From assembly GCA_943359525.1 (NCBI GenBank), contig CALRHV010000004.1, positions 1 to 62,277 of the forward strand: a stretch of 62,277 nt of DNA, written 5' to 3'. This document shows, piece after piece, positions 5,442 through 53,134 of this stretch. Within the stretch, counting starts at the first letter, position 1. Every line of letters begins with the position of its first letter. The stretch is from Candidatus Uhrbacteria bacterium (GTDB lineage Bacteria > Patescibacteriota > Patescibacteriia > UBA9934). Under the pieces are notes generated by a model that did not search any database, was not told where the DNA came from, and worked only from the letters and a program-made list of their open reading frames with translations. The position numbers and the translations under genes were made by a program.

Positions 5442-5645
5442 CAGTCATCCCCGCGCAGGCGGGGATCCAGCGACTTCACTTCACTCACTCATCAACGGGT
5501 CCTGTCGCCTCGGACCCCGTTACGGTGCTCATTTCGCACGTGACGTTTGTGGTAATCGTCATTGGTATCTGTGCTCGTTGCGCTCCGTACGGGGACCTCC
5601 CTCGGCGCCACCCGTTGATTCGTTCGCTTCGCTCATCTCCCTCTT
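5442..5645. repeat. Structured intergenic element starting with REP family A (CAGTCATCCCCGCGCAGGCGGGGATCCAG)
   Basis: REP at 5442-5470; internal IR ATCAACGGGT/ACCCGTTGAT; motif GTGCTCGTT at 5571; 3' end CCTCGGCGCCACCCGTTGATTCGTTCG closely matches 12240-12270. Confidence 0.75.
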
Positions 5646-30097: not shown

Positions 30098-30175
30098 CAG
30101 TCATCCCCGCGCAGGCGGGGATCCAGACTGTTCGATCCTGTGTGTTATGGATCCCCGCCTGCGCGGGGATGACTG
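30098..30175. repeat. Inverted doublet of REP family A
   Basis: CAGTCATCCCCGCGCAGGCGGGGATCCA ... TGGATCCCCGCCTGCGCGGGGATGACTG. Confidence 0.9.
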
Positions 30176-42476: not shown

Positions 42477-43079
42477 ATGACGCAAGACGAATCACAGAAT
42501 CCAGGATCGAATTTGGTCGGGGACAAGGAAGCGAATGTCAGTCATCCTGAGCATAGCGAAGGATCTCCCGCAGATTCCGGTCATCCCCGCGCAGGCGGGG
42601 ATCCATCATCAGATCTCGAAGCCCTTCAAACCAAATGCGCCGAATACCTCTCCGGCTGGAAGCGTGCTCTCGCAGACTACGAAAACCTTCAAAAGCAAAA
42701 CTCCAGCGCCCGCGATGATGATCGCCGACGCGTTCGATCGAATCTCGCAGAAGACTTGCTCCCCGTCGTCGACAACTTCGGCTACGTCACGAAGCACGTT
42801 CCCGACATCAGCGAGTGTCCTGAAGAGTTCAAGAAAAAGTTCGACACCTGGTTCCAAGGCATCGGCCATATTGAACGCCAATTCGCGGAAGCGATGAAAG
42901 GACTCGGCGTTGAGCCGATTGAAAGCATCGGCACGATCTTCGACCCGAACCTTCACGAAAGCGGCGGCTCGCGATCGGAACCTGGAAAGAAAGAACACGA
43001 GATCGTGGAAGAACTCATCAAGGGCTGGAAGATCGGTGACGTTGTTCTGCGACCTGCAAAAGTAATCGTTAATGAATAA
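42477..43079 (+). CDS. grpE: Nucleotide exchange factor GrpE with REP-derived N-terminal insert
   Basis: [41 protein letters not shown]. Confidence 0.93.
42541..42605 (+). repeat. Two REP units (family B and family A) in-frame in grpE
   Basis: GTCATCCTGAGCATAGCGAAGGATCTC (42541-42567) and GTCATCCCCGCGCAGGCGGGGATCCA (42580-42605). Confidence 0.9.
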
Positions 43080-46865: not shown

Positions 46866-46897
46866 ATCGAATACTGATGAGATATACTGTTCCTTGT

Positions 46898-47380
46898 ATG
46901 TCTTTTGATTTCTCTCAGTTGTTCGTCTTTGACGCGATGATTGCTGCGGGCGTTATTGCGGCATCATTTCTTTTTGTGTACACCATCGGTCGCTTCTCAC
47001 TCGTGCCGATGATTGCGGCTCTTGGTATGGGTGCGACGTTCGCGGCATTAGCGCCGTATGCTGGGAAAATTCCCGGCATCAATATCTGGCCAGCGTATCA
47101 GCAACACATTTTCGTTTTTATCGTCATTGCACTTGCGGCATTCTTTATTTTCCGACGACACTCGTACTTTGAGCCAAGTGTCGCGCCACGAAAGATCGAA
47201 CTCGCAGTTTGTGCAATGCTTATCGCTGGATTTATCTTAGCGGTTCTTGGATCATTTCTTCCCACCGATGTCATCACGATCCTTTCAACACACACGAAAG
47301 TTTTATTCGTCGACGACCTTCCTCGGACCCTGTGGCTGATCGCTCCGGTGGCTGTGTTTGCGGCAATGAAAGGCAGATAA
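46898..47380 (+). CDS. Hypothetical membrane protein
   Basis: About 5 hydrophobic segments; TATACT 9 nt before ATG. Confidence 0.55.
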   Translation: MSFDFSQLFVFDAMIAAGVIAASFLFVYTIGRFSLVPMIAALGMGATFAALAPYAGKIPGINIWPAYQQHIFVFIVIALAAFFIFRRHSYFEPSVAPRKIELAVCAMLIAGFILAVLGSFLPTDVITILSTHTKVLFVDDLPRTLWLIAPVAVFAAMKGR

Positions 47381-49088: not shown

Positions 49089-49156
49089 CGTCATCCCCGC
49101 GTAGGCGGGGATCCATCACTCCGAACAATCTGGATCCCCGCCTACGCGGGGATGAC
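49089..49156. repeat. Inverted doublet of REP family A between convergent genes
   Basis: CGTCATCCCCGCGTAGGCGGGGATCCA ... TGGATCCCCGCCTACGCGGGGATGAC. Confidence 0.9.
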
Positions 49157-49166
49157 CGGAGTTCAG

Positions 49167-49535
49167 TTACGCGAAATGTTTTTGCGATGCGAAGTACACG
49201 CGCGCGCGATTCACGTCGTTCGCAACTTTTTTGCGCATGGCTTCTTCGCCGGTCCATGGAACAAGTTCCGAAAGTTTCGATCGAACATCAACACTGAGCC
49301 GTGTGCCGTAGAGGTCGCCGGTGAAATCGAAAAGATGCACTTCGAATTTGCCATGACGGTCCGCGTCGAAACAAATAAGGCATTCAAATTGTGTGTCGCC
49401 CCACATGGCATAGCCGGCATACACGCCCGGCGCCAAATCGGGCCGTTCAAGTAGCGAAATATTCGCCGTTGGAACGCCGTAGCCTTCCGCAGCAAATCCA
49501 TCGCCATGAATCACGTTTCCAGTAAGCATCGCCAT
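49167..49535 (-). CDS. Stand-alone riboflavin kinase (RibF C-terminal domain only)
   Basis: GNVIHGDG...YGVPTANI, PGVYAG, FEVHLFDFTGDLYG; no FAD-synthetase domain. Confidence 0.85.
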   Translation of the reverse strand: MAMLTGNVIHGDGFAAEGYGVPTANISLLERPDLAPGVYAGYAMWGDTQFECLICFDADRHGKFEVHLFDFTGDLYGTRLSVDVRSKLSELVPWTGEEAMRKKVANDVNRARVYFASQKHFA

Positions 49536-49561
49536 AGTCAAATCACTGTAGCACAAATTAT

Positions 49562-50821
49562 TTAGAATAGCCGATTCACGAGATCGTTCGCGTGTTCGGA
49601 GGCGAGGCCGACGGTGCTGAAGTTGAGGGATTCGCCGATATAATACGTGTGCTTTGAGCCTTGGATCGATTCGATGCGATCAAAGAGCCCGCCTTTCATC
49701 GCTTCCGATGACACGTGGGGGAAATACTTCCAGTGCGTGATGCTGTGGACGGTGCTTACAGTGCCGCCCATCTTTTTCACCAGATCGGTCATATGATCGG
49801 TGAGATCGGCGTCGGTCTGCCCTGTATCGGCCAACGCATAAAACGTGTACACCTTTGCATCGGCATGACGATGATGCCAGAACACCGGATGCCCAGCGCG
49901 ACGCGGAGTGAAATTGCTCGGAACATATCCGTCGCCGTCGAGAATTCCATTTATCGTGCAGGCGATGGTGACGTAATCGACGTATTGAATTTTCGAAAAG
50001 AGACTTTGTTCATCTTCGGTTGCATCGAGGTAGCGCAGAGCTTCATCGAGCGCCGATGCAATGATGAGCGTATCGAATTCTTCTGTTCCTCGTTCGGTCG
50101 TAACAGAAACCGATGTTGCCGATCGTTCAATGCGCGAGATTGTTGTATTCAATCGAACGATATGCGCCGCGGCAACTGCTGTCCACAAATGCTGAATGCC
50201 GTTGGGTAGCCGATACACCTTTCGTTGCATAAACGCTAAAAGCGTTGACCATCGATAATATTTCAGAACGTACGCTGCCGGAATGCGTTCGAAGTAGTCG
50301 TAACCGAAACCAGTAAAGAACAGCGCGAATTCTCGTGCGAGATGTTCAATGTGATGCGTTTTTGCGAATTCGGAGAATGGAATAGTGAGTGCAGCATCGG
50401 TATTCATGAGTCCCGGTTTTCCCGTGGCACGGAATTTCCAGGTGAGCGCTCGATACTTCAGTACTTCGCACATGAGCGTGATTGTTTCTCTTTCGGTACG
50501 CTTCGCTAATGCCTTTCCAGTTTCACCATTTACGTTTACGCTCCGTCCAAAGGGCAATCGCGTGAGTGGAACATCGAATTCCTTCGCCAGTTTGAGCACA
50601 ACGGAATTGTCTTCGGCGACGATGCCCGCTCCAAGCTCGTAGTCCCTCCCATCGATCTCCACAGTGCAGCATTTTCCGCCAACGCGATGTGCACGCTCGA
50701 AGATGGTGATATTGATATATCCCTTTGTCTTGAGCGCATGAGCTGCCGAAAGTCCGGCTGCACCTGCGCCAACGACGGCGATGCGCTTGCCTAGCCTTTG
50801 ATCGTTTTTTGAATGGTCCAT
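49562..50821 (-). CDS. FAD-dependent oxidoreductase resembling polyunsaturated fatty acid isomerase (PAI)
   Basis: RIAVVGAGAAGL...ITIFER..VGGKC...YELGA and C-terminal W.YFPHVSSE...IQG...TYYIGE, recalled as close to Cutibacterium acnes PAI. Confidence 0.7.
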   Translation of the reverse strand: MDHSKNDQRLGKRIAVVGAGAAGLSAAHALKTKGYINITIFERAHRVGGKCCTVEIDGRDYELGAGIVAEDNSVVLKLAKEFDVPLTRLPFGRSVNVNGETGKALAKRTERETITLMCEVLKYRALTWKFRATGKPGLMNTDAALTIPFSEFAKTHHIEHLAREFALFFTGFGYDYFERIPAAYVLKYYRWSTLLAFMQRKVYRLPNGIQHLWTAVAAAHIVRLNTTISRIERSATSVSVTTERGTEEFDTLIIASALDEALRYLDATEDEQSLFSKIQYVDYVTIACTINGILDGDGYVPSNFTPRRAGHPVFWHHRHADAKVYTFYALADTGQTDADLTDHMTDLVKKMGGTVSTVHSITHWKYFPHVSSEAMKGGLFDRIESIQGSKHTYYIGESLNFSTVGLASEHANDLVNRLF

Positions 50822-52395
50822 ATCACGTTCTTTTTGAGGATAGCAGATGCGCACAGAACGCCGCCCATCACGCCGCCAGAAATACTTGCGATCATTGCGT
50901 CCTGGCCGGTGAGGAAAAGATTTTTTACTGGTGTGTATGGTTTTAAGAACGTCTGGCGGAAGCGTTTTGGTGTGTGCGACGTGCCGTAGATTTCGCCAGA
51001 CGGATGGCCAACATAATGCTTTGCCGAGATTGGAGATGAAACTTCGTAATACTCCACCTTGCCACGAAGTTGTGGTGCAGCACGGAACAAGATGTCGAAC
51101 ATTTTTTCTGCAACGCGCGCTTTCATTGCTTCATAATCCTCGCCGCGTTTGTGTTTTTCTGTTCCTTGCCACTTTTTGAACCAATCAAACGGTGTGAGAA
51201 TGATCACTTCGGCAGTTGTGCGGCCTGGGTGCGTGGTTTGTGACAGTGGATCTTTTGCCGATGGGAACGATGCGAATGCCACAGGAAGCGGTGCGTCGAG
51301 CGACGCTGCAGCGTGCTGATTCGCAACGTGATCGTACACGTCGGGGAAGATCCAGTAGTTGCATTTTGGAAGCTCGAATGTTTCTTTGAATCCAACATAC
51401 AATCCCATGTGCGCCAATGACGGCGTGAGGTTCTTGAGCATGTCGTCCAGCTTGTGTTTGCGAATGATGTCTTGCGGCAACAATGATGAGAAAGTATTCA
51501 CTACGCCGGCATCGGAAATAATCCGTTTTCCGCGAAGTACCGTTCCGTCTGCCATGCGCACGCCGACCGCAGTGTTTCCTTCAACGACGATCTCGTTCAC
51601 GCGCGCAGAGAAAACGACTGCTCCTCCAGCTTGTTCGATCACTGGCACGGTCGTCTCCGCGAACCGCGGTGCGCCGCCAACCGGATATCCTGCGCCTTCC
51701 ATGTAGTGGTTCGCTAACACGGCGTGCATGTAGAAGCTGCTTTCCGACGGTTGTAATCCGTAGTCGCCGTACTGCGCCGTCAACACGCCGATGAGTTTCT
51801 CGTTCTTCGTGATCGCTTTGAGCGCTTCAAGCGTGGTCTGATCAGAATATTTCAACGTGCCTTCGCGCATCAGTCCGCCGAAGAATTTTGCAAGGAATGG
51901 CGGAAGAACTTTTTCGGCATAGTACATGGTGCCGAGCGCATCGACATCGGAGAGAAGCTTGAAATATGCATCGATCGATGCGCGGTCTTCTGTGGTAGGG
52001 AAGTATTCTTTGAGCGCGCTCATTAAGTTCTTTCGACCGCGAGGAAACACGTATTCCTTATCCCCGAAGATTGCTCTATCATAAATATCATCGAGCGGTG
52101 CCCATTCCAGTTGTTCCTTTGTGAGGTATCGAAAGACTTTGTTGAGCAATGTGCCTTTGATGTGCACTTGGCCAACGTAGTGCAATCCCACGTCCCATAT
52201 ATAGCCCTTTCGCTGAAACGCATGAGTGTAGCCGCCGATGACGAAGTGTTGCTCGAGGACGAGGACGCGTTGCCCAGCTTGCGACAAAATCGACGCCACG
52301 CTCAGCCCACCCGTTCCAGACCCAATAACAATGGCGTCATATACGCCTTTACTCGCTTCCTGCTTCCGAAACGTGAGATAGGAAAGCCCAGGCAT
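50791..52395 (-). CDS. Phytoene desaturase/all-trans-retinol 13,14-reductase (RetSat)-like flavoprotein
   Basis: YDAIVIGSGTGG, VLEQH..GGYTHAF, WDVGLHYVG, YPVGG, FPSAKDP, NLFLTGQD. Confidence 0.8.
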   Translation of the reverse strand: MPGLSYLTFRKQEASKGVYDAIVIGSGTGGLSVASILSQAGQRVLVLEQHFVIGGYTHAFQRKGYIWDVGLHYVGQVHIKGTLLNKVFRYLTKEQLEWAPLDDIYDRAIFGDKEYVFPRGRKNLMSALKEYFPTTEDRASIDAYFKLLSDVDALGTMYYAEKVLPPFLAKFFGGLMREGTLKYSDQTTLEALKAITKNEKLIGVLTAQYGDYGLQPSESSFYMHAVLANHYMEGAGYPVGGAPRFAETTVPVIEQAGGAVVFSARVNEIVVEGNTAVGVRMADGTVLRGKRIISDAGVVNTFSSLLPQDIIRKHKLDDMLKNLTPSLAHMGLYVGFKETFELPKCNYWIFPDVYDHVANQHAAASLDAPLPVAFASFPSAKDPLSQTTHPGRTTAEVIILTPFDWFKKWQGTEKHKRGEDYEAMKARVAEKMFDILFRAAPQLRGKVEYYEVSSPISAKHYVGHPSGEIYGTSHTPKRFRQTFLKPYTPVKNLFLTGQDAMIASISGGVMGGVLCASAILKKNVIWTIQKTIKG

Positions 52396-52509: not shown

Positions 52510-52611
52510 ATCCATGTCTCGTGCGCCGCGATGCGGCTGGCCAGCTTGCGCTGGCGAACCACAAAAAGACAACCCAGGTGGGTTGTCTTTTTGTGGTTCC
52601 GAGACATGGAT
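52510..52611. repeat. Long inverted repeat/terminator incorporating the tRNA-Gln 3' end
   Basis: Arms 52556-52575/52580-52599 (20 bp perfect) and 52510-52521/52600-52611 (12 bp), with a 34-nt insert in one arm. Confidence 0.75.
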
Positions 52612-52667
52612 TCGAACCATGATTAAGAGATTCAGAGTCTCTCGTCCTGCCGTTAGACGATCTCGGA
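52594..52667 (-). tRNA. tRNA-Gln (CTG)
   Basis: TCCGAGA/TCTCGGA acceptor, anticodon arm AGAGA-CTCTGAA-TCTCT, GTTCGAATC, encoded CCA. Confidence 0.95.
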
Positions 52668-52747
52668 TTAATTGTTGCAACGCCGGGAATATACCTATTT
52701 TGGGACGCTTCGTCAATTGGTTGCGCGCTACTTCTTTTTGGCTTTTT

Positions 52748-53134
52748 TCAGTTTTTTGTATATGCATCACAATCCACCGCATCAAACACCGTTCCGGCAA
52801 GAAGGCTTCCTTCTGGCCACGTCAATTTTTCGTCGTCAAAGGCAAGTGTTGTGCCGTCTACCAGTACAACAGCATTCTTTTCCAACGTTCCGGGGCCAGT
52901 TGATGGTGGTACGATGTCTTTTCCGTTTTGTTGTTCAAGAATGGTGATAGACGCATTCGGCGATCCATCCTCGATAACGACATATGTGCGTACATCTCCC
53001 TCTTCTAAAACAAAGCAGAGTTTCGTTTGAAACGCATCACGAGGCCATTGGAAGGCGATGAGGAAGAAGATGATGAACATTCCGATTGCACTGAGTATTC
53101 CGTAGAGAACGCGATGTGATTGCATATTAAACAT
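52748..53134 (-). CDS. Hypothetical membrane-anchored protein
   Basis: N-terminal TM, two Cys; directly follows rimK. Confidence 0.55.
   Translation of the reverse strand: MFNMQSHRVLYGILSAIGMFIIFFLIAFQWPRDAFQTKLCFVLEEGDVRTYVVIEDGSPNASITILEQQNGKDIVPPSTGPGTLEKNAVVLVDGTTLAFDDEKLTWPEGSLLAGTVFDAVDCDAYTKN

Follow-up and report, generated by a model that had tools for sequence, protein, structure and literature searches.

In bacterial biohydrogenation of polyunsaturated fatty acids (PUFA), a methylene-interrupted diene is conjugated and one double bond is then saturated, which detoxifies free PUFA (PMC12254105, PMC13365329). The present analysis concerns two adjacent genes, here called A and B, in a 62,277-nucleotide stretch of DNA from a Candidatus Uhrbacteria bacterium (assembly GCA_943359525.1, contig CALRHV010000004.1, positions 1 to 62,277), referred to below as the window. 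The predicted product of B resembles the PUFA isomerase (PAI) of C. acnes, and that of A resembles enzymes of the retinol saturase (RetSat) and carotenoid isomerase (CrtISO) branch of the CrtI superfamily. Genome comparison shows that the two genes form a self-contained cassette that is conserved as a unit and that encodes what are predicted to be soluble, cytosolic enzymes carrying flavin adenine dinucleotide (FAD). Their products may act in turn on PUFA, B as isomerase and A as saturase.

The association of A and B was examined in both directions. A scan of genomes with a profile of B, one genome per species, yielded 27 loci. Wherever B identity reached 43% or more and the contig extended upstream (26 loci), a homologue of A (59-94% identical) lies immediately 5' of B on the same strand without exception. 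No upstream A accompanies three more distant B-like genes, which show 31-33% identity and come from Clostridiaceae and Acidobacteriia. In the reverse test, metagenome contigs were searched with a profile of A, and loci with room downstream were counted. At an A identity of 52.5% or higher, B follows immediately 3' of A in 28 of 28 loci; it is absent downstream at all 50 loci where the A-like protein shows 43-48% identity. PAI proper and two relatives from its clade have no A-like neighbor in the three contexts examined. Gene-pair co-occurrence had been set beforehand as a refuting test for the original prediction, and the pair was kept in all 54 testable loci.

The junction between the two genes is equally regular. 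The stop codon of A overlaps the start of B (by 28, 31, 4 or 1 nucleotides) in 38 of 45 non-redundant loci, and in 6 further loci of this set the gap is no longer than 5 nucleotides. Such a stop/start arrangement is the pattern of translational coupling. No fusion of A to B was seen among the best 150 representatives of the B-profile search.

The cassette is carried by Patescibacteria (Parcubacteria, Uhrbacteria, Kerfeldbacteria and unclassified members), by Vibrio, Photobacterium, Colwellia and Moritella, and by a metagenome-assembled genome (MAG) of the Bdellovibrionales. The Patescibacteria carriers are from groundwater and the gammaproteobacterial carriers are marine. Culturable carriers include Photobacterium sp. 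DA100 (CP119424, ~1.5627-1.5656 Mb), Vibrio sp. CAU 1672, P. lipolyticum DSM 16190 and P. kagoshimensis. Flanking genes vary with lineage and include genes of sugar catabolism (Photobacterium), peptidase genes (Vibrio) and genes for the cell envelope or for hypothetical proteins (candidate phyla radiation, CPR), from which it follows that the unit comprises exactly two genes. Beyond A and B, no partner, regulator, transporter or electron donor was conserved in the neighborhoods examined, nor was any gene for carotenoids, retinal or rhodopsin linked to the pair there. The cassette has evidently moved between phyla. Among plasmids, a 2.1-Mb Photobacterium replicon was the only carrier, with no sign of small mobile plasmids. 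Cassettes in which B is 44-67% identical to that of the window are also found in MAGs labeled 'uncultured Gammaproteobacteria' (L005, L010, L019, L024 and L025); for L005, whose contig is 2.9 kb long and whose B shows 67% identity, gene transfer and mis-binning of a CPR contig seem equally likely. Full-text literature searches retrieved no publication on the A-B pair or on the function of bacterial RetSat homologues, and no paper on active-site mutants of PAI. The A and B subfamilies and their obligate pairing thus appear to be undescribed, while the enzyme folds and the logic of the pathway are already known.

B is assigned by Pfam only to the generic Amino_oxidase family, but its relationship to PAI is far more specific. 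A phmmer search of the PDB gave one outstanding hit, 2B9W, which is C. acnes PAI, an isomerase that forms conjugated linoleate. The match (E 1.8e-58) is full length, from residues 23-430 of the query to residues 7-423 of the chain; in the open reading frame (ORF) of B, an upstream GTG at 50854 would give a product of 430 residues. The runner-up, at 2e-9, covered only the Rossmann N-terminus. Sequence identity to PAI is 32% (blastp). The AlphaFold2 model of B, for which 44 homologues were used (predicted local distance difference test, pLDDT, 91), superimposes on 2B9W in Foldseek with template-modeling (TM) scores of 0.93/0.92 and a root-mean-square deviation (rmsd) of 1.8 Å. The second-best structure was CpaO at a TM score of 0.81, and amine oxidases and protoporphyrinogen oxidases reached 0.66-0.77. 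Some B homologues are annotated by JGI as 'protoporphyrinogen oxidase'. Both enzyme classes were rejected as assignments for B, the corresponding models scoring far under their cutoffs; the proto_IX_ox model, for example, gave 43 bits against a cutoff of 98 and matched the N-terminal Rossmann part only. The earlier proposal that B is PAI-like, and neither an amine oxidase nor a protoporphyrinogen oxidase, is therefore borne out by the structural comparison.

The motifs of PAI are retained as well. The C-terminal HWKYFPHVSSE of B corresponds to WYYFPHVSSE in PAI, and RIAVVGAGAAGL of B aligns with RIAIIGAGPAGL of PAI. The PAI signature (GAGxAGL, FTxFGYG..PAAYVLKY, W.YFPHVS and a GE near the C-terminus) is present in B and invariant across the 44 paired homologues. 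Arg88, Phe168 and Phe193 reportedly line the channel entrance of PAI, and were compared here by residue identity in sequence. B of the window carries R, F and F there; across the paired clade (n=44), in an alignment that runs through a loop, the F168 position is aromatic in 44 of 44 proteins, the F193 position is aromatic in 42 of 44, and the R88 position is basic in 32 of 44. As a hint at a fatty acyl substrate this pattern is suggestive, although not decisive.

In a neighbor-joining tree, 44 B-type and 22 PAI-type proteins formed separate, reciprocally monophyletic clades. The members of the PAI clade are at least 50% identical to PAI and come from Solobacterium, Erysipelotrichales, Lachnospiraceae, Eggerthellaceae and similar taxa. 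On the grounds of 32% identity, a separate clade and a different genomic context, B is judged not to be an orthologue of PAI.

Further indications of the substrate class come from relatives of B. An exhaustive search with the B profile gave 779 clusters (at 50% identity) with E values of 1e-30 or lower, and domain architectures were drawn from the best 150 representatives. Among these are proteins of 1,800-2,500 residues in which a fatty-acyl-AMP-ligase-type AMP-binding domain is fused to a PAI-like domain, a PP-binding domain and either a thioesterase or a PlsC-type acyltransferase, as well as proteins that combine a catalase-related domain with PAI-like, PP-binding and hydrolase domains. A PAI-like domain with a 4Fe-4S domain and tandem PAI-like domains were also found. 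The fusions and tandems include P0441, P0464, P0470, P0496, P0406, P0388, P0365 and P0366, and the megaproteins look like uncharacterized lipid-modifying assembly lines. On a Bulleidia contig (L033:3307-5901), a gene of the PAI clade is divergent from an operon encoding an AMP-ligase, an acyl carrier protein (ACP), an acyl-ACP thioesterase and a phosphopantetheinyl transferase, a hint that in gut anaerobes the true relatives of PAI are connected with the activation of fatty acids. Taken together, fusion partners and operon context favor a fatty acyl chain as the probable substrate of the B family.

A contains the Pfam families Amino_oxidase (8e-17) and NAD_binding_8. Its FAD motifs (G25-G30 and G497-Q498-D499) are invariant, and the motifs FPSAKDP and LTGQD are present. 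The AlphaFold2 model (pLDDT 90) has its best PDB matches in the CrtI-family folds 4REP, 4DGK and 5MOG; the sequence score of A against 4DGK, which is CrtI, is 55 bits. The best NCBIfam model is carot_isom (TIGR02730), which aligns end to end with 155.3 bits. This is far under the cutoff of 586.9, and A was rejected as a CrtISO equivalog. JGI places many A homologues in its orthology group for retinol saturase and names them 'all-trans-retinol 13,14-reductase'. An unverified human RETSAT sequence, which is a lead only and not a database result, is 36% identical to A over 530 residues (302 bits), a far stronger match than that to CrtI. A therefore appears to be a member of the CrtI superfamily that lies nearest to the RetSat/CrtISO branch and, as far as testable, belongs to neither of the two families. 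Its placement on this side of the CrtI family, which the original prediction had derived from motifs, agrees with the best curated model, the JGI naming and the folds. No strong hydrophobic segment was detected in A outside the FAD helix, and no convincing membrane segment was detected in A, B or the downstream gene C.

The A-like proteins with 43-48% identity (L064-L114) represent an unpaired sister subfamily that is large and solitary, without a PAI-like partner; no recurring neighbor was observed in the contexts examined. The members of this subfamily are as similar as A to the unverified RETSAT sequence.

The original prediction had described a three-gene cluster in which C, a riboflavin kinase, would provide local flavin activation. 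C matches Pfam Flavokinase (PF01687) over positions 6-124 of 124 (1e-17, 64.9 bits vs a cutoff of 19.6), and matches the ribF model only at positions ~171-290 (48 bits vs a cutoff of 184). It is thus a kinase domain without the flavin mononucleotide (FMN) adenylyltransferase (FAD-synthetase) half of RibF. The true start of C is probably the ATG at 49535 (49167-49535, 122 residues), based on a homologue of 122 residues in L116. C starts ~26 nucleotides past B on the same strand, ahead of a doublet of repetitive extragenic palindromic (REP)-like elements, and is probably co-transcribed with A and B in the window. Within the fetched flanks, however, a single genome locus out of 26 had a riboflavin kinase (L025, where it lies upstream of A), as did none of the 28 paired metagenome loci, and the kinase was on these grounds rejected as a member of the system.

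Synteny accounts for the arrangement in the window, whose gene order (Dus-RimK-...-A-B) is collinear with that of close relatives among the Patescibacteria. L116 has a B that is 83% identical; downstream of it come 4.9 kb with five genes (a BNR-repeat gene, a CN-hydrolase gene and three without Pfam hit) and then the kinase (66% identical), which abuts dnaX. The DNA alignment between the window and L116 stops exactly at the stop of B and the start of the kinase (window 49557-49562 vs L116:7260-12152). Other cargo is found at this site in L002 and L115, including a Big_5 protein of 1,500 residues. The differing cargo in L116, L002 and L115 indicates that the site between B and the kinase is a variable island, and the adjacency of B and C in the window follows from a lineage-specific indel, a segment of ~4.9 kb in the relatives being missing here. 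The product of riboflavin kinase is FMN, whereas the folds of A and B are of the FAD dinucleotide type. The riboflavin kinase thus appears to be a housekeeping bystander and no conserved part of the cassette, and the three-gene cluster of the original prediction is reduced to two genes.

In the mechanism that we propose, a hydrophobic channel in B would admit a free long-chain PUFA or a very similar polyene chain. FAD would take up a hydride and give it back, as in the mechanism of PAI, so that a methylene-interrupted double bond would be brought into conjugation with no net redox change. The reduced FAD of A would most likely hand a hydride to the conjugated product of B, saturating one double bond, much as RetSat does with the conjugated polyene of retinol. 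Together, the two steps would amount to a 'biohydrogenation' in which scavenged lipids lose unsaturation and so become less toxic and more stable. This might benefit both a CPR cell that has no fatty acid synthesis of its own and marine bacteria that import PUFA. CPR bacteria generally are without fatty-acid synthesis, and Vibrionaceae take up PUFA. That B and A isomerize and then saturate PUFA in this manner is the reading we favor, tentatively and at slightly below an even chance. The wider claim, that the pair is an unrecognized two-flavoenzyme system for PUFA biohydrogenation in which a PAI-type isomerase feeds a RetSat-type saturase of conjugated dienes, is put forward with more reserve, as a possibility that may well turn out to be wrong.

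Several points weigh against such a pathway. The cassette does not encode an electron donor for A, and no gene for lipid uptake or lipid activation is linked to it in the contexts examined. The substrates of the closest characterized relatives of A are isoprenoid polyenes and not fatty acids, and one of these relatives, CrtISO, is an isomerase, not a reductase. B is distant from PAI (32% identity, a separate clade), and PAI proper acts alone; no more than 32 of the 44 paired proteins have a basic residue (K, R or H) at the position of PAI Arg88. Finally, the hosts of groundwater Patescibacteria are believed to be bacteria, in which PUFA are rare, and frequent contact of groundwater CPR with PUFA is doubtful.

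In one alternative, A and B would both be isomerases and no reduction would take place. A would then resemble CrtISO, its reduced FAD acting catalytically in the cis-trans isomerization of the conjugated product of B, and the output would be a specific conjugated or trans fatty acid that might serve membrane tuning or signaling, with nothing saturated. Carotenoid isomerase is the best curated model for A, the cassette is without an electron-donor gene, and PAI chemistry is itself redox-neutral. Against this stand the carot_isom score of 155 bits, far under the 587-bit cutoff, and the placement of A homologues in the retinol saturase orthology group by JGI, and we regard two isomerases as unlikely. 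If the substrate were instead an isoprenoid, retinoid or carotenoid-type polyene, for example scavenged retinoids or carotenoid fragments, A would saturate or isomerize it and B would be an accessory desaturase or isomerase. This would fit the characterized close relatives of A, which all act on isoprenoid polyenes, as well as the best folds of A (4REP, 4DGK and 5MOG), its RetSat naming in JGI, and the aquatic origin of the carriers. It is nevertheless distinctly unlikely: the fold and motifs of B fit a fatty-acid isomerase far better than other flavoenzymes, the fusion partners of the B family are domains that handle fatty acyl groups, and the contexts examined show no linkage of the cassette to genes for carotenoids, retinal or rhodopsin.

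The remaining explanations concern how the genes are associated. A and B might form an obligate heteromer with electron exchange between the flavins, in which one lipid would be oxidized by B and reduced by A at different positions; the net result would be a redox-neutral rearrangement beyond the reach of either protein alone, and such an arrangement is compatible with the other readings. The near-universal stop/start overlap suggests equimolar co-translation, co-occurrence is strict both ways, an external donor is not encoded, and a relative of B fused to a 4Fe-4S domain indicates that redox roles exist in the family. We nonetheless consider a heteromer of this kind improbable, given the absence of A-B fusions among the best 150 representatives and the nature of PAI, an isomerase that works alone and as a monomer. 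A three-gene unit, with riboflavin kinase as the local source of flavin for A and B, would be in keeping with the position and probable co-transcription of C, ~26 nucleotides after B and before the REP-like doublet. Synteny largely refutes it, with the kinase away from the pair in 25 of 26 genome and all 28 metagenome loci and 4.9 kb off beside dnaX in L116, and its product is FMN, not FAD; this unit is highly improbable. Hardly any weight can be given to a chance neighborhood of an ordinary amine oxidase or protoporphyrinogen oxidase (B) and an unrelated phytoene-desaturase-like protein (A). The generic Amino_oxidase assignment of both proteins by Pfam and the JGI label on some B homologues would allow it; yet the models for those enzymes score far under cutoff, PAI is the much better structural match, and family placement and linkage, with the pair kept in 54 of 54 loci, refute it.

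The features of the locus are collected in the table below. The three co-oriented genes, the 31-bp overlap, the tRNA-Gln, the REP-like doublet and the motifs quoted in the original prediction were all present at the coordinates it gave.

Features of the A-B locus and of related repeats (coordinates refer to the window)
Feature	Position	Strand	Description
A	50791-52395	minus	ORF, 534 aa; putative CrtI-superfamily FAD enzyme, RetSat/CrtISO branch; upstream member of pair
B	49562-50821	minus	ORF, 419 aa (own ATG); PAI-like FAD enzyme; downstream member of pair
C	49167-49556	minus	ORF, 129 aa; stand-alone riboflavin kinase
A/B overlap	50791-50821	minus	3' end of A over ATG of B, 31 bp
tRNA-Gln (CTG)	52594-52667	minus	ARAGORN; Rfam tRNA 61.6 bits; upstream boundary
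REP-like doublet	49090-49156		Two inverted 26-nt arms, 49090-49115 and 49131-49156, 100% complementary
REP-like core sites	5447-5466, 30103-30122, 30151-30170, 42583-42602, 49093-49112, 49134-49153		Motif scan
Hairpin after tRNA-Gln	52556-52599		Perfect 21 bp, A-run/T-run flanks; -35.5 kcal/mol, z = -7.9

The REP-like doublet sits between C and the convergent dnaX and has a predicted fold of -61 kcal/mol (z = -9.8). It is likely to be a bidirectional transcript end or a stabilizer. Six copies of its core, ATCCCCGC-STRC-GCGGGGAT, are present in the window, where 0 would be expected by chance, and the six sites include two inverted doublets (30103/30151 and 49093/49134). In L116 the kinase abuts dnaX with no REP-like element in between.

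At the other end of the locus, the hairpin after tRNA-Gln is a probable terminator that would insulate A and B from the tRNA promoter. In a consensus promoter scan, a promoter-like site (52716-52688) was found upstream of the tRNA only, and there was no sigma-70-like site directly 5' of A. An Rfam scan returned the tRNA only, with no riboswitch or other RNA family. The 21-bp hairpin shares 6 nucleotides with the 3' end of tRNA-Gln and is also kept in L002, though displaced there. The tRNA-Gln segment (window 52556-52670) is flipped relative to A-B in L116 (3288-3369) and L002 (6103-6179), and has the orientation of the window in L115 (4167-4325).

The other neighbors in the window, which is syntenic with L002, are housekeeping genes (DnaK, DnaJ, DnaX, RimK-like, Dus, beta-CASP RNase, EndoIII and Era), and none of the window neighbors gave a lipid or rhodopsin hint. 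Two ORFs that flank the region have no Pfam match: that at 46877-47380 (plus strand, 167 residues) looks hydrophobic and is probably membrane-bound, and that at 52748-53134 (minus strand, 128 residues) lies beside the RimK-like gene. The nearest homologues and the syntenic contigs are from Patescibacteria MAGs, so the assignment of the window to the CPR holds.

If the proposed mechanism is true, it would give a function to two large uncharacterized subfamilies (779 clusters for the B profile alone) and would connect fatty-acid chemistry with the RetSat branch of the CrtI family. It would be the first function for bacterial RetSat homologues and a new molecular identity for a 'conjugated fatty acid reductase'. 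CPR bacteria without fatty acid synthesis would then actively edit the unsaturation of scavenged lipids, and the cassette, exchanged with the PUFA-rich marine Vibrionaceae, Colwellia and Moritella, would offer a concrete enzymatic handle, of which there are few, on the tailoring of host-derived lipids by CPR/Patescibacteria. Since culturable Vibrio and Photobacterium carry the cassette, a genetic test is feasible that is impossible in most CPR. Even if the mechanism is false, the strict pairing would still be a clean case of a mobile two-gene enzyme module across very distant phyla.

When compared with individual known enzymes, B shares with C. acnes PAI the same length, the three-domain FAD fold (TM score 0.93, rmsd 1.8 Å), the GxGxxG, GGK, FTxFGYG..PAAYVLKY, W.YFPHVS and GE motifs, and the aromatic residues at F168/F193; it differs in its 32% identity and separate clade. 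The PAI clade is found in gut, skin and rumen anaerobes and has no RetSat-like partner (three contexts), whereas members of the paired clade always lie directly after A. A, like vertebrate RetSat (EC 1.3.99.23), is predicted to be a CrtI-superfamily FAD enzyme, and many of its homologues fall into the RetSat orthology group of JGI; FPSAKDP, LTGQD and HYM.G..YP.GG motifs are shared with the unverified RETSAT sequence, which serves as a lead only. A is bacterial, in contrast to vertebrate RetSat, is without the N-terminal extension before residue ~69 of this RETSAT sequence, and always has a PAI-like gene directly downstream. CrtISO/CrtH (TIGR02730) is the top curated model for A and aligns end to end, but the score is 155 vs a 587-bit cutoff and there are no carotenoid genes near A. 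C corresponds to the C-terminal kinase domain of bifunctional RibF; the FMN adenylyltransferase half is missing, and C stands alone and is not tied to the pair in other genomes.

As a pathway, the proposed A-B system would follow the same logic as the known routes of biohydrogenation, which use linoleate isomerase and conjugated linoleic acid (CLA) reductase in Butyrivibrio and CLA-HY, -DH, -DC and -ER in Lactobacillus, although the protein families differ. No RetSat-type enzyme is known to take part in either of these pathways. The carriers differ as well, being gut anaerobes in the known systems, and CPR bacteria and marine Gammaproteobacteria in the case of A-B.

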